Shown here one piece after another: positions 5,278 through 56,707 of a DNA stretch of 64,000 nt (positions are counted from its first letter, which is position 1; the number at the start of each line of letters is the position of its first letter). The position numbers and the translations under genes are program-made. This DNA is from Candidatus Forterrea multitransposorum CG_2015-17_Forterrea_25_41 (GTDB lineage Archaea; Iainarchaeota; Iainarchaeia; Iainarchaeales; CSSED10-239). Location of the stretch: assembly GCA_009392915.1 (NCBI GenBank), contig CP045477.1:576001-640000 (forward strand), given 5' to 3'. Below the pieces are notes generated by a model that saw nothing but the letters and a program-made list of their open reading frames with translations, ran no database searches and was not told where the DNA came from.

Positions 5278-6198
5278 TTATTTTTCAGACTTTAAATCTA
5301 AAAACATATGATATGATGCAATTGCTCCTTGAGAAGTAGAAGTTACAATTTGCTTAAGTTCTGTATGGTTAGTACAATCTCCAGCTGCAAATACACCTTC
5401 AATATTAGTTCTTTGAGCTTTATCTACAATAATTTCACCATGATCATCAAGTTTTATACTTAATTTATCTAAAAGCTCTGTATTTGGAACATGACCTATC
5501 TCAATAAATATTCCATCTAATACCATTTCATTATCATCTTTTAATTTAATTTTTTCTAATTTTTCAGAACCAATTAATTCTTTTATTTCAGAATTATAAA
5601 CAACTTCTACATTTTCTTGTTTAAATAAAGAATCAAGCCACATAGGTTCTGCTCTTAATTGAGAGCCTCTATATATTAAATAAACTTTCTTTGCAATTTC
5701 AGAAAGTAATAAAGCAGCAGTTACAGCAGCATCAGAACCACCAATAACACCTACAATTTTATCTTTATAAAAAGCTCCATCACAGGTAGCACAATAATGA
5801 ACCCCTTTACCTAAATATTTTTCTTCATTTTCAATATTTAAAGTTCTTTTTTTCTTTCCTATTGCAAGTAAAACTTTTCTTGCTTTTACAGTTTCTTGAT
5901 CAGTATTTACTATGAAAAAATCATCTTGTTTTTTAATATCCATAACTTTTTCATATTTTATAGGAATTTCTAAATTATTAACTTGTTCTACCATTTTTGA
6001 AATTAAATCCATACCAGTTACTTCTAAAAAACCAGGATAATTCCAAATAGTGTGAGCAGTAGAAGTTACTCCTCCAAAAGAATCTGTAAACATTATAGTT
6101 GACATTTTATATCTTCCTGAATAAAGTGCACTTGAAAGTGCTGCAACACCACCACCAACAATAACTAAATCATAAATATTTGAATTATTTTCATTCAT
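5278..6198 (-). CDS. trxB: Thioredoxin reductase (FAD/NAD(P)-binding)
   Basis: It has the YDLVIVGGGVAALSSALY FAD-binding fold, the redox-active CATCDG motif and a second GGSDAA dinucleotide motif. Confidence 0.75.
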   Translation of the reverse strand: MNENNSNIYDLVIVGGGVAALSSALYSGRYKMSTIMFTDSFGGVTSTAHTIWNYPGFLEVTGMDLISKMVEQVNNLEIPIKYEKVMDIKKQDDFFIVNTDQETVKARKVLLAIGKKKRTLNIENEEKYLGKGVHYCATCDGAFYKDKIVGVIGGSDAAVTAALLLSEIAKKVYLIYRGSQLRAEPMWLDSLFKQENVEVVYNSEIKELIGSEKLEKIKLKDDNEMVLDGIFIEIGHVPNTELLDKLSIKLDDHGEIIVDKAQRTNIEGVFAAGDCTNHTELKQIVTSTSQGAIASYHMFLDLKSEK

Positions 6199-6285
6199 TT
6201 TTTAATCACATTTCTAATTTTTAAAGTATTTTTCACTTGTATATATTTACAAGTATATATATTTACTATCCAAAAAATATATAAA

Positions 6286-6747
6286 CTAAACCTTTTCAAA
6301 CCTATCCCAAGGAAAAATCAACCAATCAACATTAGTTTTTGAATAGAAATCAGGATAAGAAGTACAGTTTTTTTTATTTACATAAAGACTTGCAATTTTT
6401 ACATCTTTTGGTTTATATTTTTCTTTTAATAAAGAAGAAATAAACTGAATAGTTTTACCAGAATCAACAATTTCATCTACAATTAAAATAGTTTTATTTT
6501 TTAGAAATTCTTTTGCAGGAAAATTAATTAATTCGATCTTACCTCTTTTTTCTTTAGAGTAAGATTTTACAGCAATACTAAAAAGATTTTTATTATCAAG
6601 AAGTCTTGATAAGTGAATAGCTGGAAAAAGGCCACCTACAGAAACACCTAAAATAACATCTGGAATATAGTTTTGTTTTTTTAATTGCAGAAATATTTTT
6701 TTACAATCATTTTCAATTTGAGTATAAGTAAGTTTTATTTTTGTCAT
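6286..6747 (-). CDS. Purine (hypoxanthine/guanine-type) phosphoribosyltransferase
   Basis: It has the PRPP-binding motif ILIVDEIVDSGKT and a type I PRTase fold of about 150 aa. Confidence 0.6.
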   Translation of the reverse strand: MTKIKLTYTQIENDCKKIFLQLKKQNYIPDVILGVSVGGLFPAIHLSRLLDNKNLFSIAVKSYSKEKRGKIELINFPAKEFLKNKTILIVDEIVDSGKTIQFISSLLKEKYKPKDVKIASLYVNKKNCTSYPDFYSKTNVDWLIFPWDRFEKV

Positions 6748-6815
6748 ATAATATTAATAAAACGAATAAAATAAAAATAGTATCTTAAAAAAAATAAAAA
6801 AAAGAAAGAGAAAAA

Positions 6816-7721
6816 TTATTCTCCATCTATATTAAGATTTAATTTTGCTTTAAGTTCTCTATATCTGTTTCTTATAGTAACTTCAGTTACACCAGCAACA
6901 TTTGCAACTTCTTTTTGAGTTCTTCTCTCACCTGTCATTAAAGCAGCTATATATACTGCAGCTGCAGCAACACCAGTTGGACCTCTTCCAGAAATTAAAC
7001 CAGATGCAATTGCTTTTTTAACAATTTGTTTAGCTTTATTTTCAACTTCTGAAGATAAAGTTAAAACAGAAACAAATCTTGAGATATAGTAACTTGGATC
7101 TGTTAAAGGAACAGCAATATCAAGTTCTTTTACAATGAACCTATATGTTCTTCCAATTTCTTTTTTTGTTAAACCTGAAGCTTCAGCCATTTCATTTAAT
7201 GTTCTTGGAACATTATATGTTCTACAGACAGAATAAAGAACAGCAGCAACAACAGCTTCAATTAATCTTCCTCTTATAAGTCCTTTTTCAACAGTTTTTC
7301 TATAAAGTAAAGCTGCAGTTTCAACTAAAGGATTTGGAATATTTAAATATGATGAAATTCTTTTAAGTTCTGTTAAAGCAATTGATAAATTTCTTTGAAC
7401 AGAGTTTGAAATTGAAGATCTTTTATGCCATTTAATTAATCTATACATTTGAGCTCTTGATTTTGTAGAAAGTTTATTACCTCTTAAATCTCTACCTGAT
7501 CTTTCAATCATAGTTTCAAGACCTTTGTTTATTTTTGTATATTTCATTGGTGAACCAGTACTAACATTATCTTGTTTTTCAGCATTATCAAAACTTCTCC
7601 AATCTTTTCCAGTATCGATTTGATCTTCTGATAAAACAGTATGACATTTACTACAGATATATTCTCCAGTTTTTGAATCTCTGTAGACTTTTGTGTTTCC
7701 ACATTCTGGACATTTAACCAT
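6816..7721 (-). CDS. tfb: Transcription initiation factor IIB (TFB)
   Basis: An N-terminal zinc ribbon (CPECG...CSKCHTVL) is followed by two cyclin-like repeats, which is the archaeal TFB architecture. Confidence 0.85.
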   Translation of the reverse strand: MVKCPECGNTKVYRDSKTGEYICSKCHTVLSEDQIDTGKDWRSFDNAEKQDNVSTGSPMKYTKINKGLETMIERSGRDLRGNKLSTKSRAQMYRLIKWHKRSSISNSVQRNLSIALTELKRISSYLNIPNPLVETAALLYRKTVEKGLIRGRLIEAVVAAVLYSVCRTYNVPRTLNEMAEASGLTKKEIGRTYRFIVKELDIAVPLTDPSYYISRFVSVLTLSSEVENKAKQIVKKAIASGLISGRGPTGVAAAAVYIAALMTGERRTQKEVANVAGVTEVTIRNRYRELKAKLNLNIDGE

Positions 7722-7905: not shown

Positions 7906-9342
7906 TTAAATATCTTCTTTAAACTTATAATTTATAACACTTGAAGTAAAAGTAGGTCTGAAAAGTAACCTTATAGCATCTCTATTTGGATAATAAATAA
8001 CCCCATCATTATCTTTAATTGAAATTATCTTTACAGAAGATAAATTACCATCTCTAAAATCAACTTCAGATTTTGAAGTTGTTAAAAAATTAAGAGTACT
8101 ATTATCTTTAATTATTTGTTGGATACTACTTCCTAAATAAATATTATTAAAAACAAAACTTAATTCAGGGAAAACAACTAAAACATCATCTTTTAAATTT
8201 AAAGAAATATCTTCAACAATACCTTTTATAAAATAAGGAGCAATAGGATCTTTTGGATTAATATTTATTAATTTTACAGAACCAATGTTTTGATATCTTT
8301 GTTTAAATAATACAGAAACATTTGTTTTATTAAAAAAAGAACCATATTTTTTATCTAAAACTATTAATTTTGATAAAACTCTTAATTTTTCAAAATCATT
8401 GATTTCATTTGTAATTTTTATAGCTTTAACTTTTGTAATTAAATCTTTAATTGTTATAATATCTTTTGAAAAAACTTGATTAATTATTTTTAAAGAAACA
8501 TCTTTAAATGAAAAAATATTTACAAAAGCATCAAAAGGAATTTTTCCTAATGGCATTTTAATATCAGAATAATTTATTTTTTTAACAGGAAACCCAAAAG
8601 GATCCATATTAAGTTCAAATTTATCTAAAACTTCAGAATTCTGTTGAGGATAACCAAGACTTATAAAATTATTAACAGTATCAAAAACAATAACTGTTTT
8701 TGAAGAAAGCAAATAATTTTCACAAATAATTTTAGATATAAATAATCTATCATCAAGATTTGGACCATAAACAGAAACACTTTTTAAATTTGAAAGAGAA
8801 GTTGTAACAGTAATATCTTTCTTTTTACCTAAAATTAATTTATCTAAAGGAGTTGAAGATTTAAAATCTAAAGACAAAGGCATATTTGATAAAGATTTAA
8901 TAACTTCAGGATCTGAAAAGAAATAATCATTATCTCTTTTTTCTGCAAGTTTTAAAGAAATTAATTTTATATTATAAGATTTAACAACAGAAATTACAGA
9001 ACCTACCATCTTGTTTAGTTCAGTTATTTTTTTATCTACATGATAAGATAAAGTATTAATGTCTACATATTCTGTTTCTGTATGTAGTAATAAATATTTA
9101 AAATTATTTTTTGAACCTATGTCAATATGTTTTTGATAAACAATAGCTGGAAATGGAAGAGTATTTGCAAAAGTTTCTAAATCTCCTTTAACTACAAATA
9201 CCTTATATACTTGTATGAGTACATTAGTCTTATCTCTTAGTCTTAAAAAAGACACAAAAATATCATCCTTATACAAAATGTTTAATTCTTGATTTCCGTA
9301 TTTTCCTTCATATAAGGTATTCCATGTGTTTAAAGAAATCAT
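7906..9342 (-). CDS. Hypothetical protein (478 aa)
   Basis: Long ORF. No motif was recognised. Confidence 0.4.
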   Translation of the reverse strand: MISLNTWNTLYEGKYGNQELNILYKDDIFVSFLRLRDKTNVLIQVYKVFVVKGDLETFANTLPFPAIVYQKHIDIGSKNNFKYLLLHTETEYVDINTLSYHVDKKITELNKMVGSVISVVKSYNIKLISLKLAEKRDNDYFFSDPEVIKSLSNMPLSLDFKSSTPLDKLILGKKKDITVTTSLSNLKSVSVYGPNLDDRLFISKIICENYLLSSKTVIVFDTVNNFISLGYPQQNSEVLDKFELNMDPFGFPVKKINYSDIKMPLGKIPFDAFVNIFSFKDVSLKIINQVFSKDIITIKDLITKVKAIKITNEINDFEKLRVLSKLIVLDKKYGSFFNKTNVSVLFKQRYQNIGSVKLININPKDPIAPYFIKGIVEDISLNLKDDVLVVFPELSFVFNNIYLGSSIQQIIKDNSTLNFLTTSKSEVDFRDGNLSSVKIISIKDNDGVIYYPNRDAIRLLFRPTFTSSVINYKFKEDI

Positions 9343-13122: not shown

Positions 13123-14760
13123 ATGAATCCTATAAAAGATTTAAAAACTGCATCTGAAAAGATAAAACAAAATAGTGAAAAACTAAAAGATGACTTTATT
13201 AATTATAAATATATATTAAATCAGATTAAGCAGATTATAGATTTTCAAGACGCTTTAATTGACCCTTTAAAATCACAAAAGAAAATTTTAAAGAAAATAA
13301 TTAAAAGAAATAAAAATACTGAGTATGGTAAAAAATATTCTTTTTCTAAAATAAAAACTATTGAAGATTTTCAAAAACAAGTACCAATTATAAAATATAA
13401 TGATATTTCAGAAGATATTGAAGAGATAAAAAAAGGAAAACAAAATATTTTTACTAGAGACAAAGTAGTATACTTTGCATCAACCTCAGGAACTACAAGT
13501 AAGATTAAACTTATACCTGTTACGAAGCAAAGAATAAAAAATTATAATAAAGAATTTGCTTTATGGGCTGTATATGTTCTAAAAGATTATGTGAAAATTG
13601 CAAATGGAAAAACACTTTATTTTGCAGGACCTTATTTTGAAGGTAAAACAAAAGGTAAAATACCATATGGTAGTATCTCTGGATACCTTCCTTTTAAATC
13701 ACCTTGGTATGTTAAAAAGAAAATATCAAATCCAATAAATGTTTATAACGAAATGAATTTTAATAAAAAAATTAAAAAAATGGCAATCCATGCACTCCAA
13801 GAAAATATAACCCAAATTGCTTTCACAGCACCAATTGAAGCCATTCTTTTTTTAGATTATATAAAAGAAAATAAAACTAAATTAATAAAAATAATTAAAA
13901 AGAAAAATTCTAAAAGAGCAGAATATCTATCCAAAATTGATGATTTTAAAGCGATTAATATTTGGCCAAATATAGGACTTGTAAGTTGTTTTAGATCAAA
14001 GACAAATGAAATGTATATTGACACATTAATGAAAAAAATTGGTAAAAAAATTGAAATTAGAGATCCAGGTATAAATGCTTCTGAAGGTAGAATATCTATT
14101 GGTATATCAAAAGATGGTATTTCAGGAGTATTTCCATTAAATACAACTTTTTTTGAATTTATTGATTTTAATAAAGAAAAAAAAGAAATAATTACAGTAG
14201 ATAAATTAAAATTAAATAGAAAATATAAAGTAATAATTACAACTCAAGAAGGACTATATAGATATGATATGGGAGATGTTGTAAAAGTAACCAGTTTCTT
14301 TAAAAAGATTCCTGAAATTAAATTTTTTACAAGAGAAAATTATCTTAATATCGCAGGAGAACTTGCATATGAAGATGAAATTGTTAAAGCTTTAAAAAAA
14401 TCTTTCACAGAAGAAAATTTTAAAATTAAATACTACACTGTAATTCCATATCTTAAAGATCTTTCAAAAAAACCAAGATATGAAATATTACTTGATCTTG
14501 AAGAAAATAAAACTGAAAAAGAAATTATAAAACTAAAAGAAAAAATAGATTTAAATCTTAAAGAAACAATAAACGACTACAAACAAATGAGAGAAGAGTT
14601 TGGAAGAATGGATATGCCAGTTATATCTATTCTTGAAAAAAATAGTTATGATGAATTTAATAAAAAAAGAGTTGTAGGCTCTGGAAATCCAAAACCAATA
14701 AATATACATCCTGAGCAGAATTTTAGAGAAAATTTTAAAATAAAGAAAACATATGAATAA
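13123..14760 (+). CDS. GH3-like acyl-adenylate-forming (amido synthetase family) protein
   Basis: It has the STSGTTSKIKLIPVT adenylation motif near residue 120, the YRYDMGDVV motif, and a size of 545 aa. Confidence 0.45.
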   Translation: MNPIKDLKTASEKIKQNSEKLKDDFINYKYILNQIKQIIDFQDALIDPLKSQKKILKKIIKRNKNTEYGKKYSFSKIKTIEDFQKQVPIIKYNDISEDIEEIKKGKQNIFTRDKVVYFASTSGTTSKIKLIPVTKQRIKNYNKEFALWAVYVLKDYVKIANGKTLYFAGPYFEGKTKGKIPYGSISGYLPFKSPWYVKKKISNPINVYNEMNFNKKIKKMAIHALQENITQIAFTAPIEAILFLDYIKENKTKLIKIIKKKNSKRAEYLSKIDDFKAINIWPNIGLVSCFRSKTNEMYIDTLMKKIGKKIEIRDPGINASEGRISIGISKDGISGVFPLNTTFFEFIDFNKEKKEIITVDKLKLNRKYKVIITTQEGLYRYDMGDVVKVTSFFKKIPEIKFFTRENYLNIAGELAYEDEIVKALKKSFTEENFKIKYYTVIPYLKDLSKKPRYEILLDLEENKTEKEIIKLKEKIDLNLKETINDYKQMREEFGRMDMPVISILEKNSYDEFNKKRVVGSGNPKPINIHPEQNFRENFKIKKTYE

Positions 14761-30040: not shown

Positions 30041-31018
30041 ATGATTAATAAAAAAATGATTTGGAAAACTGCAGTAGTTATAATAATGATAATTATTCTA
30101 CTATATCTTTTAGTATGGGCAGGAACAGTTAGATGTAAATCTATTCCTGGAATGTGTTCTATTTACTGGGGAACCCAAACATTAATTACTGGAAAACAAC
30201 AACCAAGCATATTAATTGTTTATAATCCATCAGATATAGAAGGTCTTGGAAATCCTTATCTTCTAGAGAAAACAATAAGAGATAATAAAATAATTGGAAT
30301 GAATGTAAGACTTGAAAATATAAATTATTTAAGTGAAGAAAAACTAAAAAATGAAGCAATGGTAATAGTTACAAAATCTAGAAAAATATCTACACCAAAG
30401 CTTGAAATGTTTATTAATTATGTATCAACTGGTGGTAGACTTATTTGGGTCGGAGATGCTGGAATAGAAAAAGAAACAAACTTAGATGTTCTTGCAACAA
30501 AAGGAGATATTGAAGGTTCATTTGATTCTAATATTGTAAGTGGCTGGGCAAGACTTGATTCTGAAAACTATATTTTAAGATTTGATAATTTCTTAGGAGT
30601 TAATTATCTTAATAATTATTGCCAAGTAAAAGATTGTCAAGATAAAATATATAAAGTTGCTAATGGTATTGAACTTAATTATAAAAAACCAATTGCTAAT
30701 AATGGAGTACTTATACCAAGTTCAGAACATCGTATGGTCTATGGACTTAGAAGTTATCTTGAAGTAAAAGATGATTTTGCAATTGTACAAACACTAAAAC
30801 CAATGACAACTCCTTTAAAATTAGATTTTGGATCAACACTTTTTGATTCAGAGAAAGTATCTTATGGAAATGAAGAAGGAGTATTCCCTTTAATAATATT
30901 AAGTAATTCAAATAAAGTTGCATACTATGCAATGCCTCCAGAATATTTAATTGAAGATGATGATAAAGAGAAATATTATTCAATAATTGAAAATATGATA
31001 TATGGTATGGTTAAATGA
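30041..31018 (+). CDS. N-terminally anchored protein of the pilus locus (hypothetical)
   Basis: It has the TM helix AVVIIMIIILLYLLVWAG and is the first gene of a same-strand cluster ending in a pilus ATPase. Confidence 0.35.
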   Translation: MINKKMIWKTAVVIIMIIILLYLLVWAGTVRCKSIPGMCSIYWGTQTLITGKQQPSILIVYNPSDIEGLGNPYLLEKTIRDNKIIGMNVRLENINYLSEEKLKNEAMVIVTKSRKISTPKLEMFINYVSTGGRLIWVGDAGIEKETNLDVLATKGDIEGSFDSNIVSGWARLDSENYILRFDNFLGVNYLNNYCQVKDCQDKIYKVANGIELNYKKPIANNGVLIPSSEHRMVYGLRSYLEVKDDFAIVQTLKPMTTPLKLDFGSTLFDSEKVSYGNEEGVFPLIILSNSNKVAYYAMPPEYLIEDDDKEKYYSIIENMIYGMVK

Positions 31019-31024
31019 TAATTT

Positions 31025-31396
31025 ATGATTAAATCTGTAGAAGCTGTTATTGCTGTAATGATTCTTTTTTTATTCATAATAACATTATTTTCAAGCTATA
31101 CAAAAACAGAAACTAGAGAAAACTTAATGATTGAAAAAAGTTCAGAAATATTTTTAATCAATGCACAAAATAAAGAATTTAGAGATTATATACAAGAAAA
31201 TAAAGGTCAAATAATATATAATGAATTATATGGTTATATAGATAGTAATTATTCAATAAAAATATGTGATTTTTTAGAAGAAAATGAAAACTGTGCTGAT
31301 TTTGGAGATACAGTTCCTGATAAAAAAAGTTTAAGCTCTTTTAATTATTATTTTTATGATATTAATAAAACTTTAAATATAATAGTGTGGTCTTAA
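31025..31396 (+). CDS. Pilin-like protein (class III signal peptide)
   Basis: The N-terminus MIKSVEAVIAVMILFLFIITLFS is a short polar head plus hydrophobic helix typical of archaeal pilins. Confidence 0.4.
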   Translation: MIKSVEAVIAVMILFLFIITLFSSYTKTETRENLMIEKSSEIFLINAQNKEFRDYIQENKGQIIYNELYGYIDSNYSIKICDFLEENENCADFGDTVPDKKSLSSFNYYFYDINKTLNIIVWS

Positions 31397-31399
31397 AAA

Positions 31400-31858
31400 A
31401 TGAAAGAAAAAGGATTTACATACATAATAATTGTTGTTTTTATTATGATATTTGTAACTATGCTTTTTTTAATCTCAAAAAACATAAACTATTCAAATAA
31501 AATAAAACATTTAGTATCAAACTATAAAACTGAAATCAACTATCTTTCAGAAAATAACTTAATAGATGTAAATAGTTTAGATGAGTTTAATATAAATTTT
31601 AAAGAATTTATAAAATCAAATAACTATAATAGTAAAGCTTGTGGAATATATTTTGATGGTAATAAATACATTCTAAGTAATTATCTTGATGCAAATTATA
31701 CTCTGATACAAGAAAATCAAACTATTGAAATATTAGCAGAAAGTGTTTCAGAAGATATCATATTTGGAAATTGTGAAATGGATATTTCTTTAGAAAATTC
31801 ACTTTCTTTTTATATAGAAATTTATAATGATTCTGAGAAAAGTATATATAAACAATAA
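31400..31858 (+). CDS. Pilin-like protein (class III signal peptide, KG/F cleavage site)
   Basis: The N-terminus MKEKGFTYIIIVVFIMIFVTMLF fits a prepilin peptidase site after KG. Confidence 0.45.
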   Translation: MKEKGFTYIIIVVFIMIFVTMLFLISKNINYSNKIKHLVSNYKTEINYLSENNLIDVNSLDEFNINFKEFIKSNNYNSKACGIYFDGNKYILSNYLDANYTLIQENQTIEILAESVSEDIIFGNCEMDISLENSLSFYIEIYNDSEKSIYKQ

Positions 31859-31925
31859 AAAAAGATAGCTTTATAAAGTAAACGAACTAATAATTTATAA
31901 TATATTATATTAATAAATTTAGAAG

Positions 31926-32276
31926 GTGTTAATGATTATGAACGAAATTAAAGAAAATATTAGCCAAATAGCATTAAAAAGTAATGAAATTGTAGCAAAA
32001 TTAGAAATATTAAGAGCTCTTGAAGAACATAAAGAAAGTATTTCTGAAGAAATTACAAAAACTAAAGAAAAGTTAGAAAAAGAAGAAATTACAAAATTTA
32101 CTTATGCTACAATGCAAGAAGTTAATCAAAAAAATTTAGATGATAACACAAATAGAAGAAAAATAATCTGGAATGAAATTGCAGAAACTATTAATAATAT
32201 TAGTGATAATTTAAATGGTCTTAAAGAATTATACAATCAAAAAACAGAAAACAACGACGCTCCAGAAGTTAAATAA
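31926..32276 (+). CDS. Hypothetical coiled-coil protein
   Basis: ORF in the pilus cluster. Confidence 0.3.
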   Translation: MLMIMNEIKENISQIALKSNEIVAKLEILRALEEHKESISEEITKTKEKLEKEEITKFTYATMQEVNQKNLDDNTNRRKIIWNEIAETINNISDNLNGLKELYNQKTENNDAPEVK

Positions 32277-32303
32277 ATCTTTATTAGGGAATATTGATGA
32301 AAT

Positions 32304-34331
32304 ATGGTTTTTCCTTCTTTAAAAGTTACAAAAGAACTTACAGATAAGATAAGTAAACTTGAAGAAATAGAAAATACTAGAAGTGAAGATGAAGAAAAAA
32401 TCATAAATCAATTTTTTAAAAAAGAAATATCTCAAAAACAATTAATTTCTCTATTAAGAGAGAAAAAAATACAATCTATTTCTAAAAAAACAGATATTAA
32501 GGCAGTACATGCACTTGTAGATTATAATAAAACTTTAGCAAAGTTATCAGAAAATCTACAACTACAAAAAATACCTATTTATAGTATTGAAAATAGATCT
32601 ACGTTTAAAAGAATTTTAAAAAACTTATTTACAAAGAAAACTAAAAAAATAAAACCAAAGAAAGTAGAAGTTAAAAAAGATATTGATACAAAAAAAGAAA
32701 CTGAAATTAAAAAAGACACAAAAATTGAAACCAAAAAAGAAAAGAAAGATACAAATATCTTTGATAGAATATTTAAGAAAAGAGAAGCATTAGTTACAAA
32801 AGTTGAAGAAAAACATGAAATCAAACCAACTTTTGAACCTCCAAAAGAACTTTTACCTGAAAACTATCAAGTCTTAATACATGGTTTTGCATATGCCTTT
32901 ATTAGAGAATCAGAAAATGAAAGAATATATGTTGTTGCAGAACCAGAACTTACAGAAGAAGAAGAAAGAATTTTAAAAGAAACTAGAGAATCACTTATTA
33001 ATAAAATATCACTTGCAGATCTTACTGATGAGTCTCAAATGTATACTTTAGTTGAAAAAATATTTACAAGAAATAAAATAAAACTTGAAAAAGAACAAAA
33101 AGATAAAATTGTTTATTATATTATAAGACAAGTAAGTGGACTTGATAAAATAGAACCACTTATGCATGATCCATTAATTGAAGATATTGAGTGTGATGGT
33201 ATAGGGATACCAATCTTCATTGTTCATAGAAAATATGGACACATTGTAACAAATATTGTTCTAGATACAGAAAATGAACTACAACAATTTATTATAAAAA
33301 TGGCACACCTTTGTAAAAGTTATGTTTCATATGCATCTCCACTTTTAGATGCAATTTTACCAGATGGATCTCGTGTAAATGCAACATTAACTTCAAATGT
33401 TTCAACAAGAGGACCAACTTTTACAATCAGAAAGTTCCCTCAAAAACCATTAACAACAATTGATTTAATTAACTCTGAAACAATCACTCCAGAAATTGTA
33501 TCATATCTTTGGACATTACTTGAATTTAAAAAGAACATGATATTAATTGGACCAACAGCTGGTGGAAAAACAACACTTCTAAATGTAATTTCTTCATTTA
33601 TACCAGAAGCACAAAGAGTAGTATCAATTGAAGATACAAGAGAAATTAATCTTTTACTTAACAACTGGATTCCACAGATTACAAGAAGTGGTTTTGGACC
33701 TCCTGATCAAAATGGAAAAAGATATGGTGAAGTTAACATGAATGATCTTTTAAAAGAATCATTCAGACAAAGACCAGATTACTTAATTATCGGTGAAGTA
33801 AGAGGAGAAGAAATGGCTTTAATGTTCCAGGGTATGGCATCTGGACACTGTTCTCTATCAACAGTACACTCTAAAAGTGTAGAAGCATTAATTACAAGAA
33901 TTACAACTCCTCCAATCTCTTTAGATCCTTCACTTATAACAAGTCTTGATATTGTAATTGTAACAGGATTTACTGGTGTTGGAGAAGAAGGAAAGAGAGA
34001 AATTAAAGAAATTGATGAAATTAAAGGTTATAATAGTAAAGATAAGAAAGTAGAATATAATCCAATATATAAATCAATAGATAAATTTAAAGAAAAAAGT
34101 GCAACTTCACAAAGTGATCTTTTCCATAAAGAAACAGCTTTAGTATACAATAGTGATGTTTTAAAAGAAATATGTACAGAACATAATATTTCTAAAAAGA
34201 AAATGACAGATATAATAATGGCAAGAACTAAATTTATTGAAGCACTTACTAAAAACCCACCAAAAGATTACGTAGAATTTAATAAACTACTTAAAAATTA
34301 TAAAAGAAAAGAAGATTTTACTGAAAATTAA
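32304..34331 (+). CDS. Type IV pilus/archaellum-family assembly ATPase (PilB/FlaI/TadA-like secretion NTPase)
   Basis: It has Walker A LIGPTAGGKTTLLN, an Asp box and Walker B ...RPDYLIIGEVRG, and the His box ...GHCSLSTVHS. An N-terminal K-rich extension is present. Confidence 0.75.
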   Translation: MVFPSLKVTKELTDKISKLEEIENTRSEDEEKIINQFFKKEISQKQLISLLREKKIQSISKKTDIKAVHALVDYNKTLAKLSENLQLQKIPIYSIENRSTFKRILKNLFTKKTKKIKPKKVEVKKDIDTKKETEIKKDTKIETKKEKKDTNIFDRIFKKREALVTKVEEKHEIKPTFEPPKELLPENYQVLIHGFAYAFIRESENERIYVVAEPELTEEEERILKETRESLINKISLADLTDESQMYTLVEKIFTRNKIKLEKEQKDKIVYYIIRQVSGLDKIEPLMHDPLIEDIECDGIGIPIFIVHRKYGHIVTNIVLDTENELQQFIIKMAHLCKSYVSYASPLLDAILPDGSRVNATLTSNVSTRGPTFTIRKFPQKPLTTIDLINSETITPEIVSYLWTLLEFKKNMILIGPTAGGKTTLLNVISSFIPEAQRVVSIEDTREINLLLNNWIPQITRSGFGPPDQNGKRYGEVNMNDLLKESFRQRPDYLIIGEVRGEEMALMFQGMASGHCSLSTVHSKSVEALITRITTPPISLDPSLITSLDIVIVTGFTGVGEEGKREIKEIDEIKGYNSKDKKVEYNPIYKSIDKFKEKSATSQSDLFHKETALVYNSDVLKEICTEHNISKKKMTDIIMARTKFIEALTKNPPKDYVEFNKLLKNYKRKEDFTEN

Positions 34332-48054: not shown

Positions 48055-48738
48055 TTAAACATACCCTTCAATGTATGCTGTTTTTGTTTTTATAAAAAGC
48101 TTTTTGGATAATTCAGGAAAAATTAAACCTTTTTTTAATTTACACACAAATTCAAAAAGTCCAATAGCAGGATAAGGAAGCAAATTATAATGAATATTTT
48201 CAAAAATAAATCCATTTAGAAAAACAGATAGCTCAGAAAGGTAATATTCAGATAATTTTTCTAACTCATTTAAAGTAAAAGATTTATCTGAAAAAAGATT
48301 TTTAATATAATTTAAAACATAATTTCTAAAAAGAATATTAGTATTAAATTCATCAAAAATTAAACACCTGTTTTTTTTATAATCAAAAGAATTAATTACA
48401 TCTTTCCAACGAACAATAATAATTTTTTTTTGAATATCTTGCAGATATTTTGCAATGATTTTTTCACACAATCTTTTTACTTGAGATCCTTTCTTAAAAG
48501 CAGTTTTTTTAGCAGAATCTTTTGAAAGATTAAAAAATATTTCATCATTAATAGCTTGGATTTCATCTGCAATTAAAATAGCTACTTTTTCGTTTGTATT
48601 TTCTAAAGCCCAATCTAAATATCTTTTAATATGTTCTTCAGAAAAATAATTATTTCTTACACTTATTCCAATATAAATATTAAATTTTTTATTTTTAACT
48701 TCAGTTTCATTTGTTAAAAAATAATTTTTAATAATCAT
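48055..48738 (-). CDS. Putative tRNA-dependent cyclodipeptide synthase (CDPS family)
   Basis: IYIGISVRNNYFS matches the AlbC-type GIS(x2)N(x)YFS pocket with the catalytic Ser. A downstream Y-x-x-x-E (YYLSE) and a later Tyr (HYNLLPY) match the CDPS catalytic Y/E/Y. The protein is 227 aa. The AlbC comparison was made from memory. Confidence 0.45.
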   Translation of the reverse strand: MIIKNYFLTNETEVKNKKFNIYIGISVRNNYFSEEHIKRYLDWALENTNEKVAILIADEIQAINDEIFFNLSKDSAKKTAFKKGSQVKRLCEKIIAKYLQDIQKKIIIVRWKDVINSFDYKKNRCLIFDEFNTNILFRNYVLNYIKNLFSDKSFTLNELEKLSEYYLSELSVFLNGFIFENIHYNLLPYPAIGLFEFVCKLKKGLIFPELSKKLFIKTKTAYIEGYV

Positions 48739-51933: not shown

Positions 51934-52725
51934 TTAATCTTCAAACAATTCTGAATCTATTAAATATTCTTTCTTTTGTTTTTTAGGTTTTATTACAGAA
52001 TTTTTAATAACAAAATTTTTAATAGATTTTTCAAGAGTATCTCTAAAGATTAAAATAATAGATAATAAAATAATAAATATAATTATTAAATAATAAAAAA
52101 TATTTGAATCACTTGACCCAACAAGTACAAAACTTGGTTTTGGAGGTTTTTTTTCATAAATTAAAACTTTTATTTGGTTTGTTGAAAAACTATTCCAGTA
52201 AAGAGTATTATCAACAATCTCTGCTTTAGGGTTTGTATCTCTAAAAACTAAAGGATCGTAGACTTTTATAGATAATTTTGAATTAGAAGGAATTACATAA
52301 AGATTATTAACAATTAAACTTCTAAATAAATTTTCATTAAACTTCCAAAGAATATCATCTTCTGTTTCATAGAAATTTTCTAATATTAAATCAGATATTT
52401 CATAATTAATATTTATTTGATCTTTTGTTTCATCAAAAATAATAGAAACATTTGAAAAATCATTTAAATAAATATTAGGTTTTAATCTTGGATCAATTTC
52501 TTCAAATTTATCAAGATCTATATTTGCAGCAATTATTTGGTTTTTAAAATTAACTTTATCATTATAGATATAAGGGTTATAAGATACATCCCAAACTTCT
52601 TTAATAATTGCCTTATCTGGACTTTTAATATCAATAGTTATATTAAAATTAGTAATTTCTGCAGAATAAACAGTAGAGGCAAATAAAAAAATTAAGAAAA
52701 ATATTAATAATTGTTTATATTTCAT
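51934..52725 (-). CDS. Secreted/anchored protein (hypothetical)
   Basis: It has an N-terminal signal peptide and one C-terminal TM. Confidence 0.35.
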   Translation of the reverse strand: MKYKQLLIFFLIFLFASTVYSAEITNFNITIDIKSPDKAIIKEVWDVSYNPYIYNDKVNFKNQIIAANIDLDKFEEIDPRLKPNIYLNDFSNVSIIFDETKDQININYEISDLILENFYETEDDILWKFNENLFRSLIVNNLYVIPSNSKLSIKVYDPLVFRDTNPKAEIVDNTLYWNSFSTNQIKVLIYEKKPPKPSFVLVGSSDSNIFYYLIIIFIILLSIILIFRDTLEKSIKNFVIKNSVIKPKKQKKEYLIDSELFED

Positions 52726-52859: not shown

Positions 52860-53891
52860 TTAAAAGATCCTATCAAAACCATTTATTTCAAAAACATAAA
52901 TTAATAAATTATAAGAATTAGCATAATTTGCATACCCTAAAAAAGAAAAAAGAGAAGAATTAAAATTAATTAAAGAAATTTTTTTAGAATTTAATAAAAG
53001 ATTATTAAGTTTTTGTCTTTTTATAAATCTCTTAACATTTGATTTTCTTAGTTTTACTTTAGTTGGGTAAATTTTATAACCTAAAAAATCAACCCCTTTA
53101 TCTACTAAATTAATATAAGTTTTGTTTTTAGGAATTGTAAGTAACAAATTATTTTTTAAAAATAATTTAATTTTTCTTCTGAAAATACTTAACTCTTGTT
53201 TAGAATTTGAAAATATTAAAAAATCATCAACATACCTATAATAGTGTTTGATTTTTAAAGTATGCTTAATATATTGATCAAGCTCATTTAAATAGATATT
53301 TGCAAAAAGTTGAGAAGTTAAATTACCAATAGGAATTCCTTTTTTATTATTTAAAAACGAAAAAGAATAACTATCTATTATTTTATATATTATAACCAAT
53401 AATTGCTTGTCTTTAATTCTTTTTTTTATAATATATTTTAAAACCTCTTTTTCAATAGAAGGAAAATATTTTTTAACGTCTTGTTTTAAGTAATATTTAG
53501 GAGATTTTTTAGATTGAACTAATTTTTTTATTTCTAAAAAACCTTTAAAAGTACCTTTTCCTTTTCTACATGCAAAAGAATTATTTATAAAAGTTTTATC
53601 AAAGATAGGCTCAATAATATTTATAATTGCATGTTGAACAACGACATCTCTAAAACAAGGAGCACTAATAATTCTTTCTTTAGGTTCATATACCTTAAAA
53701 TTTCTATATGGAGAAAAATTAAAATTACCAGAAATTAATTCTTCTTGTATTAAAAATAATTCTTTTTCAAGATTTTGAGTAAATTTTAAAATATATTTCT
53801 TATTAGGATTTGATTTTCTGGCACGTTTATATGCATTATAAATGTTTTTAAAAGAAGTAAATTCTTCCCAAAGATTATTATATGATTTCAT
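52860..53891 (-). CDS. DGR reverse transcriptase
   Basis: It has the RT motifs IISAPCFRDVVVQHA (motif 1/2), ...YFPSI... (motif 3), PIGNLTSQLFANIYL (motif 4 in the DGR-specific [I/L]GxxxSQ form rather than QGxxxSP), and YYRYVDDFLIFS (motif 5 YxDD). It is 343 aa with no maturase or endonuclease domain. Confidence 0.85.
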   Translation of the reverse strand: MKSYNNLWEEFTSFKNIYNAYKRARKSNPNKKYILKFTQNLEKELFLIQEELISGNFNFSPYRNFKVYEPKERIISAPCFRDVVVQHAIINIIEPIFDKTFINNSFACRKGKGTFKGFLEIKKLVQSKKSPKYYLKQDVKKYFPSIEKEVLKYIIKKRIKDKQLLVIIYKIIDSYSFSFLNNKKGIPIGNLTSQLFANIYLNELDQYIKHTLKIKHYYRYVDDFLIFSNSKQELSIFRRKIKLFLKNNLLLTIPKNKTYINLVDKGVDFLGYKIYPTKVKLRKSNVKRFIKRQKLNNLLLNSKKISLINFNSSLFSFLGYANYANSYNLLIYVFEINGFDRIF

Positions 53892-54148
53892 TTTTTATAG
53901 AACCTATTAAAAATTAAAAGTTATTACAGATTTCTTTAATCTAATAAAATTAAAATACTAAATGTAATAACTTATTTTTATATTCGATTTTTAAAACATA
54001 AAAACAAAAATGTTTTTATGGCATACCTTATATGCAATCAGGAAACATTTTACAGATGTAGTTTTTAGAATATACACTTTGCATATTTTAAAAAATAAAA
54101 ATAAATATACAAACTCTGATAAAACCTTATTTCTTTAAAAATAAGGAG

Positions 54149-54269
54149 AAACTACTGAACACAGCGCAGGCCGATGTTGTTGTTCCGGTTCCCAGGAGTA
54201 TTGTTCAAGTTCAAGTTCAAGACCCCTGCATTAGTTCCATTGTTCCAGTTACCACCGCGCAGGAAAGAA
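54149..54269 (-). repeat. DGR template repeat (TR), 121 bp and non-coding
   Basis: It is a near copy of 55343-55463 but carries AAC/AAT codons in the minus orientation where the genic copy has mixed bases. It lies between the avd stop and the RT start. It is GC-rich against the AT-rich background. Confidence 0.85.
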
Positions 54270-54345
54270 ACGACTCCTTTTTCTGTAAAAGCCCTATTCT
54301 TTTTATAACTAAAAAGAACAAAATAAATAATTATTAGAAAAGTTT

Positions 54346-54675
54346 TTATAAATTATGCTTTAAAAGCCCCCCAATTAATTTACCTAAATCATTTAGTTTT
54401 TTAGAAATAACTTCATATTTTTTAAAAGAAATAATTTTTAGATCAAAAGAGAGCCTCACATATATTTTTAAAAGTTCTAAATCAGTATCAATTTGATTTA
54501 AAGTATTAATTTTATGTTTTGAAAAAAGAATAGTATTAGATAATAAAGAAATAGTAGTTTTTTTCAAATCTTCTCCTAAAATATATTTGTCAGATTTAGG
54601 AAATTTTTTAATTTCAGGATAAATATAAAGTAAAAAGTTATATGTTTCTTTATATAACTTTAAATCAAATAACAT
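54346..54675 (-). CDS. avd: DGR accessory variability determinant (Avd-like four-helix-bundle protein)
   Basis: LYKETYNFLLYIYPEIKKFPKSDKYILGEDLKKTTISLLSNTILFSK matches the Avd/four-helix-bundle family (the Bordetella phage Avd has ...YLYPIAQSIPRKHG...). It is 109 aa and sits between the target and the TR. Confidence 0.7.
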   Translation of the reverse strand: MLFDLKLYKETYNFLLYIYPEIKKFPKSDKYILGEDLKKTTISLLSNTILFSKHKINTLNQIDTDLELLKIYVRLSFDLKIISFKKYEVISKKLNDLGKLIGGLLKHNL

Positions 54676-54685
54676 ATTATAAACA

Positions 54686-55093
54686 CTATTTTTTATTTTC
54701 TTCTATTTTTTTTATAAGTCCATTAAAATATTTAATTTTTTCTTCAAATTGATTATAAAAAAAAAGAATTTTATCTTTAGATAAATCTTTATTAATTTCA
54801 CTTAATATAAGTAAATTTGATTGAGTTGTAGAAACACAATCTCTTGAATAAGAATAAAGTAATGATTTTTCATTAGAATGATATTTATTATATCCTTTTG
54901 ATAAAAAAGAAAGAATATTTATTAAATTTGAAATAGTTTCTTGAAAAATAAAATTATCATTTATAGATGATTTATTTTCTTCTAAAAATTTATAAGTATT
55001 AATAACTAAAGGAAAGAGTTCTTTGTAAACCCCAAAATTTAAAATTCCTCTTTCTATATTTACTAAACTCATAACAACCATATTTTTGTCCAA
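54686..55093 (-). CDS. Hypothetical protein (second small accessory ORF within the DGR cassette)
   Basis: 135-aa ORF co-oriented between the target gene and avd. No motif was recognised. Confidence 0.35.
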   Translation of the reverse strand: MDKNMVVMSLVNIERGILNFGVYKELFPLVINTYKFLEENKSSINDNFIFQETISNLINILSFLSKGYNKYHSNEKSLLYSYSRDCVSTTQSNLLILSEINKDLSKDKILFFYNQFEEKIKYFNGLIKKIEENKK

Positions 55094-55342
55094 TATATAT
55101 TGTGATTTATTAAAACCACTTTAATTGAGTAGCAAATTTTTTTGTAAAAAACAAAAAAATTTGCAAAAGCAAAAAACATTTGCTTTCTCTTTTGCCAATT
55201 TATTTTTTTCTTTTTTCACTTTTATTTTTTATTTTTTTGCACAAACTCAATCTTGAAGCATTGTTTTTCGCGACGTTACCCGTCTTACCGTCTTGCCGTC
55301 TCACCCGTCAAAATACAATATTCTCGAAATACATTTTTTCAA

Positions 55343-55463
55343 AAACTACTGAACACAGCGCAGGCCGACGACGCTGCCCCGGCCCCCAGGAGTAAAGTTC
55401 AAGCGCAAGCCCAAGACCCCCGCATTAGTTCCACTGCCCCAGCCACCACCGCGCAGGAAAGAA
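55343..55463 (-). repeat. DGR variable repeat (VR), covering the last 40 codons and stop of the target gene plus 3 nt
   Basis: It is a 121-bp, indel-free copy of the TR. It carries 20 substitutions, all at positions where the TR has A on the minus strand. Confidence 0.85.
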
Positions 55464-56707
55464 TATACAGTAGTAGAAGTATCTCCAAAATCACTATAAG
55501 TGTAAATTCTACCAACACCATTATCTGCTGCATTATAATTATTACTTGTAAGTAAAAATAAATCTTTATACTCTAAAGTGGTATTACCTAAATTATCAGA
55601 AGAAATGTATTGGGCTTCTCCACCACCTTTTGAATAATCAAAATAATCAAAACCAGTAGTAAAGTTACTATCATCAGCATTGTTAAAACCATCAGGTTGG
55701 TCTTTTCTTTGGATAGTGTCACTTGTCCATTGCCAAACATTACCAGCTAAGTCCCAAATTACTTCACCGTTTGTTAAAGTTAAGGTTCTTTTTGTAGTGC
55801 CAGAAAGTTCATCAAAACCTTCCATAGCACCAGAAGAAGAAGAATTACCACGTGGAAGATAACCTTCTCCAACAACTCCAGTTGACCAGTTTGAAGGTAC
55901 TTGTTCAATGTTTCTTGCAATGGTCATCCATTCGTCATTTGTTATTAAATGTCCACCTACTGCAGCACAAGCTGCAATAGCTTCGGTTTGGGAAATTCTT
56001 GCTATTGGAGAACCTTCTGGAGTTGATACTAAAGTGCCTGGAGTAGGACATAATTCATAACTATAAGTATTATAGGTTAAAGAACCAGTATTACAATCTG
56101 GATAATCAGCTACAAGGTTTCCTTTACCATCTCCATTTGCATCCATTTTCATTTCATATTTTGAAACACAAAAACCACCACGCTCATTCATGGTTCCATA
56201 TAAATGGTTTCCTGGAACTGGAACATAGCCTTCTGGACAAGAAAGAGGAGTTTTTACGGTTTGAAAAAGATCAGGTTTAGTTATCATTTGAGAATTGTCT
56301 AAATATAAAACTAAATCTAAAGAGTCACCTAAAATACCATGATCAAGAGTAGCAGATTGATTGGAAAGAATAGTGACAGGAGGTTCTAAAGGATTAATGT
56401 TTGAATTGCCTAATAAACTATAACCGGTAATGGTAATAGAAGTATAAGGAGAACCATAAGGGGGTTTATACTCTAGAAGAGAACGACCATTGATAGAAGA
56501 TTTAATATTTAAATAAAAGCCAGTTTCTGATTCTGTATAAACTTCAATACTTGAAGCTTTAGAAAAAGAATCATTGGTAAAGCCTTTACCCCAAGAAAGA
56601 ATAATACCAATAATAGCAACAGAGACAACTATTAAAAGAATGGTGGCTATCAAAGGAGAAATACCTTTTTGAAATCTAAAACGCTGAAAAATATATTTGA
56701 AAAACAT
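55346..56707 (-). CDS. DGR target protein: a pilin-like N-terminus (class III signal peptide) plus an FGE-sulfatase/C-type-lectin-fold domain with the variable region at its C-terminus
   Basis: The N-terminus FQKGISPLIATILLIVVSVAI matches the archaeal pilin/archaellin G-x-SP-[LV]-IAT-[VI]-LLI motif. The C-terminal half (GGFCVSKYEMK ... LRGGGWGSGTNAGVLGLRLNFTPGGRGSVVGLRCVQ) matches the FGE-sulfatase fold ending in R-C-V. The last 40 codons overlap the VR. Confidence 0.8.
   Translation of the reverse strand: MFFKYIFQRFRFQKGISPLIATILLIVVSVAIIGIILSWGKGFTNDSFSKASSIEVYTESETGFYLNIKSSINGRSLLEYKPPYGSPYTSITITGYSLLGNSNINPLEPPVTILSNQSATLDHGILGDSLDLVLYLDNSQMITKPDLFQTVKTPLSCPEGYVPVPGNHLYGTMNERGGFCVSKYEMKMDANGDGKGNLVADYPDCNTGSLTYNTYSYELCPTPGTLVSTPEGSPIARISQTEAIAACAAVGGHLITNDEWMTIARNIEQVPSNWSTGVVGEGYLPRGNSSSSGAMEGFDELSGTTKRTLTLTNGEVIWDLAGNVWQWTSDTIQRKDQPDGFNNADDSNFTTGFDYFDYSKGGGEAQYISSDNLGNTTLEYKDLFLLTSNNYNAADNGVGRIYTYSDFGDTSTTVYSFLRGGGWGSGTNAGVLGLRLNFTPGGRGSVVGLRCVQ

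Follow-up and report, generated by a model that had tools for sequence, protein, structure and literature searches.

The 64,000-nt window analysed here (contig CP045477.1, positions 576,001 to 640,000, of Candidatus Forterrea multitransposorum) contains two similar 121-nt segments 1.2 kb apart, close to a reverse transcriptase (RT) gene. The locus raised the question of whether these segments are the template repeat (TR) and the variable repeat (VR) of a working diversity-generating retroelement (DGR), and of how such an element could tell donor (TR) from recipient (VR) when both repeats end identically. No natural system other than DGRs is known to rewrite a selected stretch of a protein at will. 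DPANN archaea and bacteria of the candidate phyla radiation (CPR), which depend on attachment to other cells for their way of life, carry DGRs unusually often. The evidence made it very probable that the locus is a functional chromosomal DGR of an AT-rich archaeon, probably of the DPANN type. On the minus strand, its parts followed one another in the order target gene (with the VR at the 3' end), a 128-aa open reading frame (ORF), avd (accessory variability determinant), TR, a 257-nt spacer and the RT gene. Mutagenic retrohoming from TR to VR, the reading of an original prediction made from the sequence alone, was supported: all of the predicted components were intact, on one strand and in canonical order. 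The locus is a clean, complete archaeal example of a DGR, with population evidence of change at single-site resolution.

A repeat search of the window reported one repeat family, a 121-nt direct repeat on the minus strand between positions 54149-54269 (the TR) and 55343-55463 (the VR), with 83% identity. The original prediction had stated that the copies align without indels, that all 20 differences lie at template adenines, that the VR holds G, C or T there, and that non-adenine positions are unchanged. All of this was borne out by the base-by-base tabulation. The alignment was ungapped over 121 nt, and each of the 20 mismatches fell on a T of the plus strand, that is, a coding-strand A, in the 54149 copy (16 A>G, 3 A>T and 1 A>C; no mismatch at a non-A position). 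With 31 adenines among the 121 TR positions, the hypergeometric probability of 20/20 mismatches on A was 2.4e-15. The mismatches were confined to 55369-55444 of the VR, and 29 of the 31 adenines lay inside the mutable span. The translations previously quoted for both repeats were exact, and the TR, read in the target frame, was rich in AAC codons as claimed, with nine of them, together with three AAT codons instead of the two counted earlier. The estimate of about 13 affected codons had to be lowered to 12, comprising 11 amino-acid changes and one silent GCA>GCG.

The identical GC-rich 3' end proposed to resemble an IMH (initiation of mutagenic homing) element was also found. It occupied positions 55343..55368 (minus strand) in the VR, and its full extent ran through the stop codon and the following TTT (GGCCTGCGCTGTGTTCAGTAGTTT), unlike the slightly differing ends of the Bordetella phage element. 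Identity collapsed directly beyond the repeat borders on both sides in the window alignment. An adenine-tolerant scan of both strands, 40-mers included, found no third copy or remote VR in the 64-kb window, so the claim that this is the only near-repeat held within the window; it did not hold genome-wide, because a second paralogous DGR cassette lies outside it. No ORF in the ORF list covered the TR, which is intergenic and non-coding, and in orthologous cassettes the homology between the TR region and the target gene found by tblastn amounted to 44 aa only. Since identity collapses outside the repeat and target homology is confined to it, the TR is not a decayed gene copy, and the possibility raised earlier that it might be a randomly diverged pseudogene duplicate did not apply.

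The RT gene (52860..53891, minus strand; 343 aa) starts 257 nt 3' of the TR. Its product matched RVT_1 at 1.7e-23, and the motifs IPIGNLTSQ and YVDD did not vary in a family alignment that included relatives with as little as 48% identity. Its best solved relative was the 328-aa RT of entry 8ub7 (E 2.4e-56), probably the Bordetella phage bRT; the best group II intron RT scored 1.6e-21. More than 5,900 RT relatives were found at E<=1e-20, with labels including Aenigmarchaeota, Woesearchaeota, Nanoarchaeia, 'Ca. ainarchaeum' and Patescibacteria. An RT-profile search of genome contigs gave, among the matches listed, 80 distant DGR loci (L015-L094) with RT identity of 48% or less, of which 72 had an Avd gene and 53 an A-biased TR/VR pair. 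The avd gene of the window (54346..54675, minus strand; 109 aa) scored 90.8 bits on the NCBIfam model NF033474 DivGenRetAVD ('diversity-generating retroelement protein Avd'; cut-off 80) and matched Pfam bAvd at 2.1e-21. Its product has a pI of 9.5, and such a basic pI is typical of Avd (Wu et al. 2018, PMC5758913). The catalytic YVDD was present and all of the cassette ORFs were intact in the window.

The target gene (55346..56707, minus strand) encodes a variable protein of 453 aa, and the VR forms its last 38 codons. The protein matched Pfam FGE-sulfatase at 3.6e-09. An AlphaFold2 (AF2) model built from 34 homologues (mean confidence, pLDDT, 85.8) contained a long N-terminal helix (residues 18-49), a β-sandwich domain and a C-terminal domain of the C-type-lectin/formylglycine-generating enzyme (FGE) fold. 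In Foldseek searches, the top PDB matches of this last domain were the DGR variable proteins TaqVP (5vf4, 2e-08) and Mtd (1yu4), followed by formylglycine-generating enzymes, and the architecture corresponds to type B1 of Wu et al. 2018 (PMC5758913). The N-terminus (QKGISPLIATILLIVVSVAIIG) follows a family-wide consensus, [KR]K[AS][IV]SPLIATILL, and the prepilin-type motif QKGISPLIATILLIVV was conserved throughout the family. The segment made up of this signal and the hydrophobic helix (QKGISPLIATILLIVVSVAIIGIILSWG; 56588..56671, minus strand) was delimited from weak pilin-model matches, the family alignment and the model. Pilin_N (PF07790) was matched by 20 of the 34 family members, with a best E of 2.9e-4 and a value of 0.028, below the cut-off, for the window protein. 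The window protein also matched the UpsA pilin N-terminus (5e-05), TIGR02537 (15.4 against a cut-off of 20) and, weakly, arch_flag_Nterm, in every case below the curated cut-offs. One homologue carried a precomputed Pilin_N assignment, and several were labelled 'flagellin-like' by JGI.

The N-terminus of the target therefore resembles, at the sequence level, archaeal class III (prepilin) signals. Because of this N-terminus, the variable domain is most likely exposed at the cell surface, where the protein would be a pilus subunit or be held by its N-terminal helix, and the target is probably a variable adhesin. Typically, neither a transmembrane domain nor any other conserved domain can be recognised in archaeal (clade 5) DGR targets (Roux et al. 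2021, PMC8144416), which makes the prepilin-type N-terminus a useful functional lead: the target would be a prepilin-type surface protein with a variable lectin-fold tip. Elsewhere in the window, the region 30041-34331 (plus strand) encodes a T2SSE-family assembly ATPase of the type IV pilus/archaellum type (32304-34331). The small ORFs that come before it have hydrophobic N-termini resembling those of pilins, one of them being MKEKGFTYIIIVVF at 31400-31858. Prepilin-type proteins, the DGR target among them, might be assembled by this machinery.

The RNA around the TR was analysed in an alignment from the TR 3' end to the RT start of seven cassettes with RTs 55-100% identical. The spacer between TR and RT (53892..54148, minus strand) had a single-sequence fold z of -3.0, and RNAalifold predicted 48 pairs from the seven sequences, 22 of them with at least one compensatory double change. 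Spacer hairpins were placed at 54125-54146, 54021-54035, 53997-54020 and 53920-53971. The outermost helix was an invariant 7-bp duplex between GUAGUUU at the TR 3' end (54149-54155, stop codon included) and AAACUAC in the spacer (54058-54064), about 85 nt downstream. One nucleotide past this duplex, the spacer segment UCUGUAAAA (54048-54056) pairs with UUUUACAGA (54282..54290), about 12 nt 5' of the TR. The same pairing was kept in relatives by other sequences (CUUACA:UGUAAG, GGUUUUGUGUAU:GUAUAUAAAACC and GUAUACAG:CUGUAUAC), so that the duplex is conserved in position, with compensatory changes in four variants. The priming adenosine of the Bordetella phage DGR RNA sits in a 7-bp template:primer duplex, TR:Sp (PMC6182149), and two nucleotides after that duplex lies an avd:Sp duplex, the 'cPRT Stop' (bioRxiv 10.1101/2023.10.23.563531), of which the upstream duplex in the window would be the analogue. 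An RNA architecture solved for the Bordetella phage DGR is thus recognisable in a distant archaeal element. Rfam searches of the window at gathering thresholds gave only two tRNAs, and no known RNA family covered the spacer.

Because the RNA layout reproduces that of the Bordetella phage DGR, we infer cis-primed reverse transcription that starts beside GUAGUUU and ends just 5' of the TR. These endpoints fit the two adenines of CAGUAG, which were unchanged in every VR of the clade, and a TR/VR homology 121 nt long. By homology with the DGR of Bordetella phage BPP-1, the transcript (avd 3' flank, TR and spacer) would fold so that the spacer AAACUAC pairs with the TR 3' end as a template:primer duplex, while the neighbouring spacer segment pairs just 5' of the TR and would serve as the stop. 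RT and Avd would then copy the TR into cDNA, misincorporating opposite the 29 template adenines, and the cDNA would replace the VR by retrohoming. Up to ~8e15 C-terminal sequences could arise in this way on the C-type-lectin fold's ligand-binding surface.

Natural variants bore on whether the element is active. The window was identical to contig JAACSP010000001.1 of assembly GCA_009993835.1 over the 13.4-kb stretch compared. In the assembly collection, the RT occurred in 92 blocks, the exact target protein of the window in 52 and a second target allele in 32; judged by these counts, the same population has been assembled many times. The locus with the second allele (L008) differed from the window at 1 of 13,362 nt, namely position 55372, a TR-adenine site in the VR, where the alleles encode Val (GTC, window) and Leu (CTC, L008). 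In a strain with 95.6% identity (L009-L011), the VR differed from the TR at 15 sites, all at A, and 19 of the 93 differences between L009 and the window were inside the 121-nt VR. In a sister strain with 96.5% identity (L012), the cis VR differed from its own TR at 11 sites, all at A. A second target in the sister strain, at the remote locus L004, had 15 VR differences, 14 at A. A C>T specific to the TR of this strain at a non-A site was present in both VRs, which is what repeated copying from the TR predicts. Between strains, TRs were identical or differed at one site; VRs differed at 11-20 adenine sites. Together, the natural variants are strong indirect evidence, drawn from sequence comparison, for activity of the DGR in nature.

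The target copy of L004 (contig Ga0451658_000012, gene 6001-7377) lies on the same contig as the cassette, about 220 kb away, with no RT or Avd nearby, and its nucleotide identity was 93% to the window target compared with 87% to the cis target of its own strain. Remote target copies with a VR and a tandem GACGG array (described below), and without RT, Avd or Avd2 nearby, were found at L004, L141 and L135. Contigs L096, L097, L098 and L100 stop at or within the VR or just outside avd2, and L099 begins inside the target gene; such breaks would fit population heterogeneity that disrupts assembly.

Several points weigh against a functional DGR with a surface-displayed target. The natural variants compared were consensus assemblies, and the changes in the window VR were biased towards A>G, although other strains showed all three substitutions. 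In L003 (JGI 3300008085), from the same population, a 1-nt deletion, which may be natural (giving an avd-null variant) or may have arisen in assembly, splits avd (8033-8361) into ORFs of 58 and 37 aa. The prepilin-type N-terminus reached curated models only below their cut-offs. The IMH-like ends of TR and VR were identical, and the classical model therefore leaves the distinction between donor and recipient unexplained; additionally, no canonical GC-rich hairpin was found 3' of the VR in the window (DNA fold z = -1.5 against shuffles). Identical IMH and IMH* ends do exist and need downstream discrimination, and just 34% of DGRs have a VR-flank hairpin (Wu et al. 2018, PMC5758913). In some close relatives a hairpin does lie 3' of the VR: L131/L141 have a canonical one that follows the stop codon directly and has a GAAA loop, and L115 and L097 have one as well. 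Of the features that define a DGR and lend themselves to testing in silico, the locus lacks only the IMH/IMH* difference and the VR-flank hairpin, both known to be non-universal.

These points were weighed together with three other explanations. If the DGR were structurally intact yet now inactive, the VR differences between strains would be old and inherited. The use of consensus assemblies alone, a dominant VR allele that is identical across many samples and the frameshifted avd of one assembly would agree with such an element. However, its ORFs and catalytic YVDD are intact, the sole difference in 13.4 kb sits at a TR-adenine VR site when ~0.2% of positions qualify, the TR-specific non-A variant is mirrored in both sister-strain VRs, and contigs of relatives break at the VR, so that inactivity was judged improbable. 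An adenine-specific process other than reverse transcription, for example an adenine deaminase acting on the VR DNA or its transcript, would account for the 16 A>G changes among the 20, a signature of deamination. It is less probable than an inactive element, and we regard it as very improbable: A>T and A>C are also present, all three substitutions are common in the VRs of other strains, an unmutated template copy stands beside RT and Avd, and no deaminase gene was found in the flanking genes scanned. The least probable explanation, to the point of being negligible, was a duplicated 3' gene fragment (a piece of pseudogene) that has nothing to do with the adjacent RT and owes its divergence to ordinary mutation or to gene conversion. 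Two similar copies do lie 1.2 kb apart, and paralogous target genes exist in these genomes, but such divergence is opposed by the restriction of all differences to the adenines of one copy, by a similarity that stops exactly at the repeat borders, by the non-coding nature of the TR and by relatives with RTs 55-82% identical, in which the arrangement recurs together with Avd and RT. A functional DGR thus remained the preferred explanation.

The next question was what could mark the recipient of this DGR. A VR-flank element at 55269..55309 (minus strand) consisted of four tandem units of 8-9 nt, GACGGGTGA GACGGCAA GACGGTAA GACGGGTAA, followed by CGTCGCG, and is a candidate recipient-site marker. 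The genome has 24% G+C, whereas this GACGG array is GC-rich over 41 nt; it begins 37 nt past the stop codon (33 nt past the repeat end). The 5-mer GACGG had no other occurrence on that strand of the window, where the array was unique, with 0 expected by chance. Between VR and array lies an AT-rich block (AAAAAATGTATTTCGAGAATATTGTATTTT; 55310..55339, minus strand), which was conserved among loci with RTs only 55-82% identical. Block and array were found together 3' of every VR and of no TR in 13 distinct loci of the clade; the array had 4-5 units, with ATCGG/ACGG units instead in one relative. A metagenome scan for the array returned 63 matches, of which the 7 in low-GC contigs all lay just 3' of a VR-like end, and the remaining 56 were unrelated GC-rich microsatellites. 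Among the 80 distant loci listed, none had the GACGG array.

Other roles for the array were tried and rejected. A promoter of the avd2 operon was unlikely, as the remote targets L004, L141 and L135 keep the array without avd2, avd or RT downstream; the array is therefore part of the target site. That the array docks the DGR RNA through base pairing was also rejected: CCGTC occurs nowhere from avd2 to RT, and its absence from the transcript argues against recognition of the array by base pairing. Complementarity between the VR-flank repeats of distant DGRs and the conserved TR-flank motif CCAGA was unsupported (5/16, with 1-4/16 in controls). A recurrent motif with no relation to the array, GACGGG(N)TAGACGGCTAGACGGATAGACGG and then CTAGCGGG or ATAGGGG, was seen in metagenome contigs of 59-72% GC, in many cases just after tRNA-like sequences (L107, L114, L116, L118, L121, L125, L126, L128-L130, L133, L140, L144, L148, L155, L156 and L159).

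The 128-aa ORF between target and avd (54686..55072, minus strand), called Avd2 here, kept this position in every cassette of the clade. Its AF2 model (pLDDT 81.9) was a four-helix bundle, and the top Foldseek matches were 2gsc/2rld of the pentameric S23/23S-rRNA-IVS family and Avd itself (4dwl; TM score 0.77), with TM scores of 0.72-0.81 and weak E-values. Weak E-values are usual for helical bundles. The profile PF05635 was matched by 3 of 11 family members (best E 3.5e-06), and no Pfam or NCBIfam assignment was found for Avd2 itself. A recent duplication of Avd was considered and rejected, as BLASTP and hhalign (probability 0.3%) gave no similarity; the link between the two proteins lies at the level of the fold and of the weak PF05635 matches. 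Avd2 is accordingly predicted from its model to be a second, divergent four-helix-bundle protein of the Avd superfamily, less basic than Avd (pI 8.5 and 9.5, respectively), and plausibly a multimeric ring like Avd. The family is small, with only 51 clusters among 1.84e9 cluster representatives in an exhaustive profile search. The Avd2 hidden Markov model (HMM) matched 0 of the 80 distant loci listed, and the Avd HMM 72 of them. Of the 372 DGRs of Wu et al. 2018 (PMC5758913), a single one had two avd genes.

In the loci examined, array and Avd2 co-occurred perfectly, a co-occurrence that is phylogenetically confounded. As a hypothesis, Avd2 may have a role in reading the GACGG array. The full proposal, that the recipient site of the clade is marked by a 4-5-unit GACGG array read by Avd2 as a protein-based module that also permits the recruitment of remote targets, is speculative and, on the sequence evidence, unlikely to be correct in this form. 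If true, it would give a testable answer to how donor and recipient are told apart despite identical ends.

A weaker, broader version of the idea was suggested by the distant loci. Fifty-three of them had an A-biased TR/VR pair, and in these the VR flank (60 nt on the 3' side) showed a raised periodicity of 7-9 nt, with a mean of 0.507, compared with 0.367 3' of the TR (Wilcoxon p = 1.7e-7 for VR flank against TR flank) and 0.390 in random windows. Typical units were (A/T)(A/T)TCTG (WWTCTG), repeated 3-5 times, or CCCTTT, usually before a GC hairpin. A description of this periodicity was found neither in Guo et al. 2011 nor in Wu et al. 2018. Tandem repeats of 7-9 nt directly 3' of the VR could thus be a general, overlooked feature of DGR target sites, and the GACGG array may be a lineage-specific form of it.

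A comparison with known systems placed the locus close to the DGR of Bordetella phage BPP-1 (mtd-avd-TR-brt), the experimental prototype. Both have the gene order target-avd-TR-RT, adenine-specific differences concentrated in AAC codons, the VR at the 3' end of a C-type-lectin-fold protein, a basic Avd, a GC-rich shared 3' end, and a 7-bp TR:spacer duplex followed by an upstream:spacer duplex. In contrast to BPP-1, the present element lies on an archaeal cellular chromosome and not in a phage, its target is a pilin-like cell protein instead of a tail fibre, its IMH and IMH* do not differ, a GC hairpin or cruciform is missing 3' of the VR in the window, and the locus has the GACGG x4 array 37 nt past the stop codon as well as an additional Avd-like gene. 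From 2015-2017 on, DPANN archaea have been known to carry DGRs, and this locus adds a further example. It shares the small-genome uncultivated archaeal host and the C-type-lectin (CLec)-type target with the DPANN/CPR DGRs described previously (Paul et al. 2015, PMC4372165; Paul et al. 2017) and covered by the surveys of Wu et al. 2018 (PMC5758913) and of Roux et al. 2021 (PMC8144416). In the DGRs of Nanoarchaeota from Paul et al. 2015, IMH and IMH* differ and the target gene contains a GRA-loop hairpin, whereas the window locus has neither feature, and unlike the archaeal clade 5 targets of Roux et al. 2021, its target family has a conserved prepilin-type N-terminus.

The target resembles Thermus aquaticus TaqVP (5vf4), other FGE-type variable proteins and Mtd (1yu4) in its best structural matches and its FGE-sulfatase match, but the sequence identity is only ~18% and it adds the N-terminal prepilin-type helix and an Ig/FN3-like β domain. 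A bacterial G-type pilin domain is among the rare VR-bearing domains (PMC11661182). The idea of varying the binding part of a pilus-associated protein is shared with bacterial type V pilus targets, from which the present protein differs in its putative pilus system (archaeal type IV-like, not bacterial type V) and in its domain of life. Avd2, with the same predicted four-helix bundle as the Avd/S23 pentamers (4dwl, 2gsc and 2rld) and PF05635 matches in some members, differs from them in having no profile similarity to its cognate Avd, in being less basic and in belonging to a tiny family. The features particular to this lineage, namely the second Avd-like gene, a GACGG array that would replace the classical recipient cues and a prepilin-type target, are modestly novel, and their functions are putative.

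A second complete cassette of the same type was found outside the window in the same genome (L164/L165), adjoining a DDE transposase. It contained a target of 457 aa, avd2, avd, a TR and an RT of 338 aa. Its TR differed from the window TR at a few non-A positions, and there each VR follows its own TR. P0152, initially regarded as a remote target of this genome, turned out to be this second cassette's target protein. The genes neighbouring the window locus included archaeal-type phenylalanyl-tRNA synthetase (PheRS) alpha and beta, LonB, PCNA, RFC and a family B DNA polymerase, and the locus therefore lies on a cellular archaeal chromosome; the host is probably a small AT-rich archaeon of the DPANN type.

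Directly 3' of the RT lies a 263-aa ORF (51934-52725, minus strand) without a Pfam or NCBIfam match. It was kept in the sister strain and was absent beside the RT of more distant cassettes; it is therefore probably not part of the DGR. A cyclodipeptide synthase (CDPS) homologue (48055-48738, minus strand; Pfam CDPS, 1e-10) lies directly downstream of PheRS beta/alpha. CDPS enzymes use aminoacyl-tRNAs, which makes this adjacency suggestive. Further genes in the window encode a full-length protein of the GH3 family (acyl-acid amido synthetase type; 13123-14760, plus strand) and a 730-aa protein with DUF285 and InlB B-repeat (Flg_new) matches (1073-3265, minus strand), which is probably surface-exposed.

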